Shown: one piece after another, positions 9,081 through 54,327 of the stretch
How positions within the stretch are numbered: position 1 is the first letter of the stretch
Layout of the letters: the number at the start of each line of letters is the position of its first letter
Assembly (NCBI GenBank): GCA_951406725.2
Contig: OX597825.1
Location: forward strand, 3,782,001 to 3,846,000
Direction of reading: 5' to 3'
Origin: Octopus vulgaris
Lineage: Eukaryota
DNA: 64,000 nucleotides
The notes under the pieces: generated by a model
Told to the model about the DNA's origin: nothing
Seen by the model: the letters and a program-made list of their open reading frames with translations, nothing else
Database searches by the model: none
Position numbers and translations under genes: made by a program

Positions 9081-9511
9081 TTTTGTGAAATAGAAAGATG
9101 AATAATCGTGTTGCAGATTAATCAAAAGTTTAACCGATACATTGGTAGCAAAAATCACAGCAGAAGACAGAACGGTTGGAGGTACAACCCTATGGTGTTG
9201 CAACCGTGCGTTGGTGCGGATAATTGAATTTTAATATTATTAGTGAATTGAAGAAATGGAGTTGAACGAAGATTGAACAGAAATCGTTTTATTGCATTCT
9301 ACACGTGTTTCGAAAGGCACAATTTACCAAATTCCGATTGAATAAGGAGACCATATTGTGTCTTTCTCTTCAGGAAGAAATAGGAAATCCGTTGGAAAAA
9401 ACAAAAACAGAACAGAGGCGGAGCAAAGCAAATCGAACGAGGCTCCTAAGAGCCCATGGCCAAACTGTTCAATCTTCGTTCAACTCCATTTCTTCAATTC
9501 ACTAATAATAT
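9081..9511 (-). mobile_element. Short 5'-truncated PLE pseudo-LTR insertion with inverted partial duplication, in (TA)n
   Basis: Perfect 47-bp inverted repeat 9234-9280/9465-9511, hammerhead on the minus strand, (TA)n on both sides. Confidence 0.75.
9297..9376 (-). ncRNA. Type I hammerhead ribozyme (canonical core)
   Basis: Minus strand reads TTC CTGAAGA GAAAGACACAAT..ATTGTGCCTTTC GAAA CACGTG TA|GAA. Stem II pairs at 11 of 12 positions, stem III is palindromic, cleavage triplet GUA. Confidence 0.8.
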
Positions 9512-9724
9512 ATATATATATATATATATATATATATATATATATATATATATATGGGTGTGTGTGATTGTGTATAGAAGAATATATTAATAAAAAGAAT
9601 TCCAACCTTGTCTGATTTTCACGTTTTATTTACAATCTTATAATGATATATTATAAGATAATATATTATAATTGAATAAAATAAAATAAAATGAAATAGT
9701 AGAATGTTAAATATTCATTCTGAT

Positions 9725-9769
9725 TGAACTAGTACTTTCATGCATTGAATTCTGCAATCTTCGGGTTCA
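9725..9769 (-). ncRNA. Minimal type I hammerhead ribozyme in left pseudo-LTR
   Basis: Mirror copy of 15717-15761. Confidence 0.7.
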
Positions 9770-10263
9770 TGTAGTAGTGTTGACAGTCATGCTTCACAAT
9801 TTTTGACTGTAGCAAGATGAGTGATTCTGTGCTATAAATACAGCTGGGTAGGCTCCAGAGTGCTAGGTTTTGCAAACTGTATTCTGACCAATCAGTGTGT
9901 AGTATCACTCAATTACTTAAGCTGATTGGTTGGTTGAGCTGATTGGTTTAGGCATCACGCTTTGTTGGACAGGTCAAGAGTCCTGTATTTTGACCCTGGC
10001 CGAAGCAGCAATTGTTGGGTTATTTTTAGAAATGTTGTAAATATCCTTTGTCAGAGATTTTTATATTTTTATATTTCAATTGTCATCATCATCATTGTCA
10101 GCACCTTAATTATTGTTGCTAGTGGTGATGGTGGTGGCAATAGAACTTTTAACCCTAAATAAGATAATTTTCCTGCTATCTTCGTCTTGATCACCTTTAG
10201 TATTGTTGTTGTTGTTAGTGGTCATGGTCGTAGCAGTGGAAGTAATACCTCTAAGTATTATTA

Positions 10264-51343: not shown

Positions 51344-53694
51344 ATATATATATATATATATATATATATATATATATACATTCATACATATATACACATA
51401 AACACACACCACACACACACACACACACATATATATATATATATATATATATACATACAAACTAATACATTCTATGTGACCGTCCTCTAATGTTTAATGT
51501 TCATTTACTCGATTTCATTGTGTGAGGGTGGGGATATGTGTGTCACATAGTGTTTTCCCTTGATGTGAGCCATAAGCATTGAGTTAGTATATCAAATTTG
51601 GATAGGTAGGAACCTATGTAGTAAGCATATATCTCTTCGGGGCAAACGCCTACTATCTTAAACTTGACATTAACTTAAAAGGTATTCAAACATAAATCAT
51701 ACACTGCCCTTCCAGCGCGGAATGGATATTCGAACTCTGTCCTAATTCTTCGTTAATCTGTCATCTTAATTTATCGTATAGCATTAAAACGAACGATTTT
51801 ACATGCTTAAAAAATTCTAATACATTTTACGAACGTATTTTCAAACGTGTGTTTCTTCTTTCAAAGATAAGAAGACATTAACGATGTTAGTGAACAGAAT
51901 GGTTGATAGCATCAACACCATATTCAGTCAAGTATATCCTTGTTCCAAAGGACTTTCCAGATATCTATGATCTAACTCCATATATCAGTGAACGCACACC
52001 ACAGCAATATTTTGTTTTATTGTTTGGTTCACATTGAAGAGAAACAGGTTGAAAGACATACACTCAATGAATAGCAATATAGTTATCGGATTTGTTTCGG
52101 ATAATTTTACGAACACTGCAGCAGTGAAATCCTTTTGAAAGATCTACGGAAGCCAAATAAATAGCGCCTGATAGAAATTTATGATGTTTGAGATTGATAG
52201 GCGTGTGCATCACCTATTGACTACAGTGATTTCTCATGCCCTGGGGTTCCTCTACCGATGTCTGGACACTACGCCGTCGAACGTAAATGCATAATCAATA
52301 AAATAATGAATCACAATTTCCTTGATTTGGCCGGCCGGCCAGTAGTAGCTCTTCAATGAATAGAGGTCATTAAAATATGGAAGAGTAAGACCTTCAGTTT
52401 ATTCAGTAGCACCTATCTCTCAGCATTGCTAAGGGCGCCTTTAGCCCTAAACTCTAGCTAAAATTGACTATTAGCCAAGTTTAATGTTGTCTGCAATAGA
52501 CATTAGTATCTTATCTTAGAATATCTCGGCAGCTATATGCGGCAGTTTCTTTTTATGTCAACTATGATGTTATTCAACTCGCCGTTCTGACTAGCGGATT
52601 ATCGACTCGTAGAAAATATCTCCTTGTGCTTTCTGGATAACTTTATCGCCAAGTGCTCCACTAGCTTTTCATGGCTGTTCGCCAGTTACATTTAAAACTT
52701 TATTATTATTATTTTTTTGTCTTCTTCAAAACCTCATCAACTACCAATTGTTATTTGTATTCATACATTGAGAAGATTCTGCGAATGGAGTGAGTGAAAA
52801 TTATTTCATAAAAGGTGCTATCAAAATACTTTTAAGAAAATTAAATACTATTCACAAACGAAGACTGCTTGTTGACCATACGACTCAAATTACATTGAAA
52901 ACCGTTCCAGAAATTACCTTAATACAAATAAGCACTTTTCGGAGACATGCATGCAGTGTACATAGTCTGAACGTTATAAAGAAATGGTATCGCACGAATG
53001 TAAATATAAATATAATATTCCTCGGTGAAGAATGTATTCAAATTAATATAATGAGCAAATACAATCGTCTACATTACTGAATCATTACACCATACTCTTC
53101 GTTATTAGTTTTTCAAGCGTACACACATACTCACTTTTTAATAGATACACCCAGATATTTAGATATTGGCAGACGCATATGATTACAGACATTTCATAGC
53201 ACACGCACACACACAAGCGTATAAGTACACAAGTATGTTATTTAAGTGTGCGTTACGTGTACACCGCTGAATCGTGTCTCCTAAATAATGGTGTTATGTT
53301 CTAACTAGGTATTCATGCATTACAATGCAATTGATTAAACGTATATATATGATGTAAGTTAGTGTGGTTGTGTCTTTAGGTCTATAAGCAAGGGTTATCA
53401 ATAATTATATTTTGCCGTACATATATACGCACAACCAAGTCAATATTTGCATGCGCTTGTTTTTGTATGTATGAAAAAATACTTCATACATAGAGAAAAA
53501 TCGCTGTGGCAAGAGGTTCGGCGCAAAAAGATTCACTTGACCTCCATGTAAACAGTCACTTATCGTAACAACTACCGTTCTGTTATCTTACATGTTACCA
53601 GTGCAGAATACGTAATTCAGATTGCAGTGTTTTCTTTAAATCATATCGCATTTCGCTTGCTCATCAGCCATCAACTGCTAAACTGTCTATTCAA

Positions 53695-53897
53695 CAATCT
53701 ATCTATCTATCTATCTATCTCTCTCTCTAGCTATCTATTTCTCTCTCTCTCTCTCTCTCTCTCTCATATATATATATATATGTATATATATATATATATA
53801 TATATATATATATATATATATATATATATATATATATATATATATATATATATATATATATTGTGTGTGTGTGTGTGTGTGTGTGTGTGTGTGCGTG
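53695..53897. repeat. (TCTA)n(CT)n(TA)n(TG)n compound microsatellite
   Basis: Direct reading. Confidence 0.9.
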
Positions 53898-54165
53898 TAA
53901 TCAAAGAATTATTGCCCACAAATTTCACACAATATAATATATATATATATAAAATTTGAAAAGAAACACCTTTTATCAATTCAAAATGAACGATTAAATT
54001 ACACCATCTAGAAAATTACATATAATAGAAATATTAAAATTAAAATAACAATAAAATATCAATGATTAAGTGAATTGCAAAACAAATACTAAAATCAAAT
54101 ATAATTGGTATATATATATATATATATATATATATATATATATATATATATATATATATATATAT

Positions 54166-54327
54166 TTCAACAATTGAGGGTAAAATTAATTAGCTATTAA
54201 TCAATTTCACCAAGTATTCAGTATGTAAAGGGACCATTTAAGGCGAATTCAAAATATTACATTGTATAAAAGGGCTTAGTAAAATATGTGGCAAAGTAAT
54301 TTATTTTACTAAGCCCTTTTATACGAT
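54166..54327. mobile_element. Very short insertion with terminal inverted duplication in (TA)n (probable PLE 3' end)
   Basis: 26-bp inverted repeat 54261-54286/54302-54327 (1 mismatch); (TA)n on both sides. Confidence 0.5.

Follow-up and report, generated by a model that had tools for sequence, protein, structure and literature searches.

The 64-kb stretch of the Octopus vulgaris genome analysed here (contig OX597825.1, positions 3,782,001 to 3,846,000; hereafter the window) holds four inverted units, E1 to E4, each bounded by (TA)n tracts and built from two copies of one sequence joined head-to-head. By its sequence E2 is a Penelope-like element (PLE), and E1 and E3 likely belong to other PLE families. 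The arrangement of the units suggests that both ends of a cut (TA)n tract primed reverse transcription of the element RNA, at two sites lying a tail's length apart, a reading to which we assign a probability of about one half.

Geometry of the inverted units

The window is AT-rich and dense in microsatellites, and long open frames occur only in one retroelement. The units, together with the tracts around E2, lie as follows:

9082-9507: E1 unit; perfect arms at 9234-9280 and 9465-9511, spacer of 184 nt, tail of 152 nt (9082-9233)
9508-9555: (AT)24 tract, common to E1 and E2
9556-15898: E2 unit; arms at 9582-12287 and 13199-15904, spacer of 911 nt, tail of 26 nt
15899-15930: right (TA)n tract of E2
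50454-50805: E3 unit; arms at 50510-50655 and 50661-50806, 5-nt loop, tail of 56 nt
54166-54325: E4 unit; arms at 54264-54286 and 54302-54324, spacer of 15 nt, tail of 95-98 nt (54166-54260/63)

The original prediction, made from the letters of the window alone, had described four such units with arms of 47, 2706, 146 and 26 bp and tails of about 153, 26, 56 and 95 nt. Re-measurement bore this out, with arms of 43-47, 2700-2706, 146 and 23-26 bp and tails of about 152, 26, 56 and 95-98 nt. The E1 arm is 47 bp long if the 4 nt that merge with the tract are included and 43 bp if they are not, while the E2 arms are 100% complementary over 2706 bp, or over 2700 bp once the 6 nt common to the tract are excluded. 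The E4 arms pair perfectly over 23 bp, or over 26 bp with one mismatch, and those of E3 over 146 bp with four mismatches. The four E3 differences are all transitions (three A/G and one T/C on the sense strand of the element), which may reflect age or edited templates, either being compatible.

When the segments between merged (TA)n tracts were searched for tract-anchored inverted repeats with a score above 20, six of the 43 segments contained one. Two of the six are (TG)n/(CA)n pairs, leaving E1 to E4 as the sole non-microsatellite examples among these segments. Fifteen shuffled windows gave best anchored scores of 9-14, and E4, with a score of 23, was compared with 2000 shuffles that reached 12 at most.

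In every unit the 3' ends point outward and only one copy bears a tail. This tail sits on the left in all four units, in agreement with the earlier claim that the longer copy lies on the left throughout, and in the two units in which the spacer can be assigned, E1 and E2, the tail-bearing copy also extends further 5'. No symmetric inverted unit running from tract to tract was present among the 43 segments. No nucleotide similarity was found among E1 to E4, which represent different families, so that the description of one signature spanning unrelated elements holds. Miniature inverted-repeat transposable elements (MITEs) carry inverted repeats at both termini, whereas the left termini of these units lie 26-152 nt beyond the arms; and the head-to-tail tandem units, each with a type I hammerhead, that define non-LTR (long terminal repeat) retrozymes do not occur in these segments.

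It had been suggested that the shared orientation could reflect an overlying transcription unit or chance. Chance is compatible with the data (p=0.125 for 4/4, and p=0.0625 for 5/5 if a fifth unit, described below, is included), and neighbouring units share tracts and are therefore not independent. No meaning for the orientation is supported, as three other repeat families in the window lie both ways (3:4, 4:2 and 5:3 by strand).

Identity of E2 and the smaller units

The features of E2 are:

9556-13198, minus strand: long copy, predicted Neptune-type PLE, 5'-truncated inside the upstream frame; tail at 9556-9581
13199-15898, plus strand: inverted copy of 2700 bp, identical to the long copy, tail-less, its last 6 nt common to the tract
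10264-12591, minus strand: predicted reverse transcriptase (RT) and GIY-YIG open frame of 775 codons, with DKG motif, CX4CxxC linker and CCHH
12498-13198, minus strand: upstream frame, a probable fragment of open reading frame 1 (ORF1); the RT frame that it overlaps lies in the -1 frame, and a T7 run is found near 12570-12576

The 5' sides of the two copies meet at 13198/13199, and both 3' ends are directed toward the tracts. From its sequence, E2 is predicted to encode a Penelope-like RT and a GIY-YIG endonuclease. As in endonuclease-bearing (EN+) PLEs, the RT and the C-terminal GIY-YIG domain share one frame, and the element is accompanied by an inverted truncated copy with a one-sided tail. 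In Pfam, RVT_1 was matched below the cut-off (E 2.3e-6) and GIY-YIG above it (E 2.7e-5). The protein has 700 homologues, the best of which is 65% identical, and the named ones come from bivalves and bivalve-symbiont bins. The DKG motif, the linker cysteines (C650, C655, C658) and the CCHH residues (C693, C696, H715, H732) are invariant in 36 aligned proteins.

Like Neptune PLEs, E2 has an RT followed by a C-terminal GIY-YIG endonuclease, a DKG motif, a CX2-5CxxC linker ahead of GIY-YIG, CCHH, a microsatellite target and a 3' hammerhead. The linker, CCHH and C-terminal endonuclease together exclude Penelope/Poseidon, Hydra and Naiad according to the published clade descriptions, and, judged from those given in Craig 2021 (PMC8557442), the predicted protein is probably of Neptune or Nematis type, the best database relative being 65% identical.

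The upstream frame of E2 is likely a known, frameshifted ORF1. In a relative, L003 (1-1300), an upstream frame is laid out as in E2, with the RT in the -1 frame and a run of T residues where the frames overlap, and although the two upstream frames show some resemblance by eye, tblastn gave no in-register match between them. No homologue of the E2 upstream frame, longer or near-length, was found, and the database homologues of the E2 protein mostly begin at the RT frame. A frameshift-separated ORF1 is already drawn as an option for PLE types in the Fig. 1 legend of Craig 2021 (PMC8557442), and the -1-frame ORF1 was consequently dropped as a novelty.

As a single query, the E2 protein gave no confirmed match in the prokaryote and viral collections. 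An alignment query found nine PLE loci in genome bins, none with an inverted copy, and no match in viral contigs. These loci (L002-L010), which lie in bacterial genome bins, are likely contamination from animal hosts. L007/L008 consists of a 3083-bp PLE unit in head-to-tail tandem, with one hammerhead per repeat.

The copies of E1 and E3, a fifth (TA)n-bounded unit and the candidate hammerheads of all these units are:

9082-9464, minus strand: E1 long copy, probable PLE-type 3' end, ending at 9082 against the left (TA)n; includes the tail at 9082-9233
9465-9507, plus strand: E1 inverted short copy, 43 bp, its end sharing 4 nt with the tract
50454-50660, minus strand: E3 long copy; tail at 50454-50509, loop at 50656-50660 with strand not assignable
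50661-50805, plus strand: E3 inverted copy, 4 differences in 146 bp
50864-51342, minus strand: fifth unit, with hammerhead and no inverted copy
9297-9376, minus strand: E1 hammerhead, type I, canonical core, long stem II, palindromic loop III; within the spacer
9725-9769, minus strand: hammerhead of the E2 long copy, U4C core
15717-15761, plus strand: hammerhead of the E2 inverted copy, U4C variant
50594-50644, minus strand: hammerhead of the E3 long copy, swapped G3-C8 core pair, one extra base before stem II
50672-50722, plus strand: hammerhead of the E3 inverted copy, likewise with the G3-C8 pair and the extra base
51053-51144, minus strand: hammerhead of the fifth unit, U4C core, 61-nt stem II region

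A hammerhead motif in the 3' terminal region is a PLE trait seen in E2, and E1 and E3 carry candidate motifs in sense orientation upstream of the 3' end. Two descriptors were used to find them. The first gave seven cores in the window, four within tract-bounded units and three outside, against a mean of 0.4 and a maximum of 3 in 20 shuffled windows. The second, relaxed descriptor gave six cores; in five of these, loop III is a palindrome of at least 4 nt, and these five lie in E1, both copies of E2, E3 and the fifth unit. All five have their 3' side facing a tract, and 30 shuffled windows gave no such motif. The E1 motif falls in the spacer, which shows that the spacer belongs to the tail-bearing copy. 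A PLE relative from a genome bin, L002, which is 48% identical to E2, has the same motif followed by (TA)5 52 nt downstream, and the flanking T...T layout of the E2 hammerhead agrees with the Hydra-clade list in the Craig 2021 supplement (PMC8557442). The distance from the hammerhead core upstream to the junction of the two copies is 18-23 nt in E3, 91 nt in E1 and more than 2 kb in E2.

These motifs resemble the minimal type I hammerheads described for metazoan PLEs by Cervera and de la Pena 2014 (PMC4209133) in their palindromic loop III, extra base before stem II and opposite-strand pairing, the published pairs lying 100-700 bp apart. The E3 motif (stem I of 7 bp, stem II of 8 bp, fold z -2.05) differs in its G3-C8 core, since only C3-G8 and U3-A8 are reported in nature in that account (PMC4209133). 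The exchange C3G/G8C is described as a laboratory rescue mutant in Frangieh 2024 (PMC11167929), and no paper joining G3-C8 with retrotransposons came up in a literature search. The E3 pattern had no match in viral contigs; its single metagenome match, in a GC-rich bacterial gene, was put down to chance.

In run X3, 6450 contig pieces fell on E1 and the E2 long copy. Their summed depth, which is no copy number, was 343,000-524,000 in the 3' bins of E2 and fell to 22,000-51,000 at its 5' end, a gradient expected of a 5'-truncated multicopy family. Over E1, including its tail, the same sum was 274,000-773,000, with single listed records at 45-92. The high depth on the E1 tail indicates that the tail is likely repeat sequence and not unique flank; E1 as a whole, tail included, likely belongs to a multicopy family. 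Three raw-read runs of 12.9 million reads each placed 21, 88 and 10 reads in a comparison that left out 9499-9705, the interval holding the E1 short end and both E2 end positions. The output listed no pile-up of ends, and of 71 joints the 15 shown were all skips within the element. In run X22, joints at 12304-12346 (four reads) and 12880-12931 (seven reads) were observed, the former of which reads as a 40-bp tandem duplication in another copy of the family.

Minimal type I hammerheads of this kind are a described mark of PLE terminal repeats, and together with the multicopy depth of E1 they make it likely that E1 and E3 are truncated 3' ends of PLEs, from families other than that of E2. Similarly, the fifth unit is likely a plain truncated PLE 3' end. 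Several results tell against this assignment. The hammerhead descriptors were written after the motifs had been spotted by eye, and three of the cores found by the first lie outside the tract-bounded units. Rfam gave no hammerhead at gathering level in the window, nor at E values up to 10 in the two regions tried; no tblastn or profile match linked E1, E3 or E4 to a PLE protein; and the descriptor scans found no hammerhead motif in E4. A core-agnostic hammerhead scan yielded nothing further above its null. Five 12-mers from E1, E3 and E4 were absent from the Naiad, Chlamys and Hydra files of the Craig 2021 supplement (PMC8557442). An open frame of 30 codons in E3 (50455-50544, minus strand), which begins with ATG and crosses the short end to the tail tip, resembles the arrangement in PLEs that have their first codons within the terminal repeat and tail; with no database match, it was rejected as the start of a PLE open reading frame.

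E4 shows no coding signal, and shares with the other units the inverted copy, the one-sided tail and the position in (TA)n. It is probably of PLE origin, and may be truncated downstream of the hammerhead. Of 48 ends with which it was compared, that of L002 shows a weak likeness to it (25 and 67 of 10,000 shuffles). A relationship to the fifth unit was rejected, the likeness not being significant (89/1000 shuffles). A 14-bp hairpin (54171-54203) lies close to the tip of the E4 tail. Thus the proposed link of the four units to PLEs is firm for E2 and likely for E1 and E3 through their hammerheads, whereas E4 lacks both hammerhead and coding signal.

Several neighbouring features were also noted. 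Beside E4, the short AT-rich segments 53899-53936 and 53952-54108 lie between TA tracts and are possibly further stumps; the former was ruled out as a relative of the E1 tail (825/1000 shuffles). At 56927-58773, 1.8 kb between (TA)n tracts has a left end resembling those of E1 and E2 (z ~4) and a 13-mer in common with the tip of the E1 tail; no PLE frame or clear hammerhead was found in it. To the left of E3, the interval 48493-50334 holds decayed frames that by eye resemble a pogo/Tigger-type DDE transposase and that end at the (TA)n tract beside that unit. Finally, at least two dispersed families, with six to eight copies each and oriented both ways, resemble short interspersed elements (SINEs) and look like octopus SINEs; they are represented by 8822-9052 and 19765-20201.

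Formation of the inverted copies

In twin priming of L1 elements, the second end of the cut target primes internally on the RNA and the two complementary DNAs (cDNAs) join at their 3' ends, resulting in an inversion. The products invert the upstream part of the element without duplicating its 3' end. In the units described here, by contrast, both arms hold the same 3' region, and classic L1 twin priming is therefore insufficient unless strand displacement or a second template is added. A twin-priming-like mechanism had been proposed for these units; in the strict L1 sense it is not supported, while priming from both broken (TA)n ends is, in our reading, the likeliest explanation.

Such priming could proceed as follows. 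The endonuclease would cut both strands of the (TA)n tract, for which there is a precedent in the Poseidon element PAc, which cuts AT-rich DNA in vitro (PMC11167929). One 3'-OH would prime at the end of the RNA tail and the other at an inner site, where annealing would help if ATAT(AT) is present, as in E1 and E2, but would not be required, as in E3 and E4. Both cDNAs would then cover the same 3' region, by strand displacement on one RNA or with a second identical or tandem template. Both would stop early, and each 3' end would continue on the other, to yield the head-to-head join and the second strands. In a variant of this scheme, the inner site would prime first, and the trailing enzyme would displace that cDNA and then jump onto it, which would give small loops and a longer tail-bearing copy.

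Read 5' to 3', each flank leads into antisense element sequence and could therefore have primed a cDNA. Furthermore, PAc, from Anolis, cleaves and extends both strands of an AT-rich target, uses two RT start sites that bound the tail, and is predicted to be a dimer (PMC11167929). These properties of PAc make two-ended priming our first choice.

The earlier claim that in the two clearest cases the shorter copy stops at an internal AT-rich motif merging with the flank is confirmed for E1 and E2 only. There the short end shares 4 nt and 6 nt, respectively, between the long copy and the tract, compared with 1 nt in E3 and 0-2 nt in E4. Relative to random breakpoints in the same elements, P was 0.013 for E1, 0.015 for E2, 0.56 for E3 and 0.31 for E4, and 0.008 over all four units combined. 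Microhomology is thus an enrichment carried by two cases and not a rule. As a requirement, TA microhomology has to be given up, being absent in E3 and E4; PAc likewise needs no homology to the cut DNA in order to initiate reverse transcription (PMC11167929).

The most serious competitor is a fold-back, which we regard as a real possibility, albeit one with odds short of even. Here a single target-primed reverse transcription would start from the tail end, and the truncated cDNA would snap back at a short palindrome and copy itself; the hairpin would then be cut by the endonuclease at its own AT-rich motif, or be captured by a second (TA)n end, leaving the copied arm without a tail. This would account for the asymmetry of all four units, the identical arms of E1, E2 and E4 and the ATAT(AT) microhomology in E1 and E2. 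It also fits with published views, as Craig 2021 (PMC8557442) attributes the tail to endonuclease-mediated resolution. Against it, reverse transcription in vitro can begin on the RNA at the inner boundary of the tail, and both strands are extended (PMC11167929). At the E2 junction, complementarity is absent outside the arm; any within the arm would be invisible without the family's upstream sequence.

A number of observations, then, count against priming from both ends. The proposed steps are read from the shape of the products, and a fold-back would yield the same products. Fold-back predicts short loops, such as those of 5 nt in E3 and 15 nt in E4, and a spacer derived from the tail-bearing copy, as seen in the two units that can be assigned (the hammerhead in E1, the open frames in E2); palindromes at such junctions were interpreted as self-priming by Arkhipova 2013 (PMC3846280). 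E3 and E4 lack the microhomology. In addition, PAc is a Poseidon element and E2 is of Neptune type, and PAc shows no strand difference in its use of start sites (PMC11167929), which alone would not yield asymmetry in four of four units. No inverted product is among those described for PAc, whose starts need no homology, whereas E1 and E2 have 4-6 nt.

A stricter form of two-ended priming is also conceivable but, in our view, doubtful. Every inverted insertion of these TA-targeting PLEs would be obligately asymmetric, with one end at the tail tip and the other at a family-specific inner site at most about 150 nt upstream, and the tail-bearing cDNA would always overtake. The cause would be a single RT dimer that primes the two cut ends on one RNA molecule, its trailing enzyme displacing the leading cDNA and jumping onto it. 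The same doubtful joint proposition holds that one family, that of E3, would carry a working natural G3-C8 hammerhead. If true, obligate polarity would be a duplicating form of twin priming that could be counted genome-wide.

Two further explanations carry little weight. Insertions might have been symmetric at first, with one tail lost later through deletion or microsatellite expansion in the interval from the inner ATAT motif to the adjoining tract. Long inverted repeats beside (TA)n are unstable, and the 4 and 6 nt of microhomology where the short copies of E1 and E2 end would also be expected from microhomology-mediated deletion. However, the absence of any difference in 2700 bp of the E2 arms leaves little time for such a loss, no symmetric unit exists among the 43 segments, E3 and E4 lack microhomology, and the tail is described as optional throughout the PLE clades and is matched by two RT start sites. 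Later loss is accordingly the least probable of the alternatives.

Scarcely more probable is that some units do not derive from PLEs. E4, and less likely E1 or E3, would be a TA-targeting DNA element of foldback or MITE-like type, or the tail would be a separate second insertion beside a symmetric palindrome, or the second arm of E2 would be an assembly fold-back artefact. E4 indeed has no hammerhead or coding signal, and its likeness to other ends is weak or not significant; a perfect 2.7-kb inverted repeat is, moreover, the typical product of a fold-back read chimera. Yet E1, E2 and E3 have outward-facing hammerheads, and the inverted repeats of MITEs, unlike these, occupy both termini. Finally, the flanks of E2 and of E3 beyond the tracts are mutually unrelated and the arms end asymmetrically, neither of which a fold-back read would give, arguing against an artefact of assembly.

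Relation to known PLE insertions

The signature itself, presented as a recurrent pattern in the original prediction, is not new. It is the known PLE insertion footprint, found here in further families, which seem to be unnamed. According to Craig 2021 (PMC8557442), the 5' end bears a 5'-truncated copy in inverted orientation, the tail of 30-40 bp is often one-sided, and a (TA)n bias is seen across clades; the supplement lists Penelope-13_HM, which targets (TA)n and carries such an inverted copy 5', as well as octopus Naiad and Hydra families in (TA)n. In D. virilis, inverted terminal repeats occur with a 34-bp repeat (Schostak 2008, PMC2377424). The 5' truncation, head-to-head inverted copy, one-sided tail, (TA)n target and lack of a discernible target-site duplication in our units are all in keeping with these published descriptions (PMC8557442, PMC3846280, PMC2377424). 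Unlike the insertions described there, the present units have tails of 26, 56, 95-98 and 152 nt, no direct partial tandem accompanies E1 to E4, and three of the four are stumps without coding sequence. The differences from the published picture are therefore small, comprising tails of up to about 150 nt, asymmetry in four of four units and the G3-C8 core. A 2026 repeat annotation of Octopus vulgaris counts 336 recently active PLE insertions, and its main text mentions neither palindromes nor hammerheads.

For annotation, these units serve as a warning, as a short palindrome flanked by TA in this genome is likely to be a PLE stump, not a MITE or a microRNA hairpin; E3, for example, matches a plant microRNA hairpin model at E 5e-10. 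The formation of the inverted copy and the tail of PLEs is still listed as open by Craig 2021 (PMC8557442) and Frangieh 2024 (PMC11167929). With four inverted units in 64 kb, this genome is rich in young TA-targeting copies, and thousands of insertions could be counted for tail asymmetry, arm polarity and junction homology, a count that would separate two-ended priming from fold-back.

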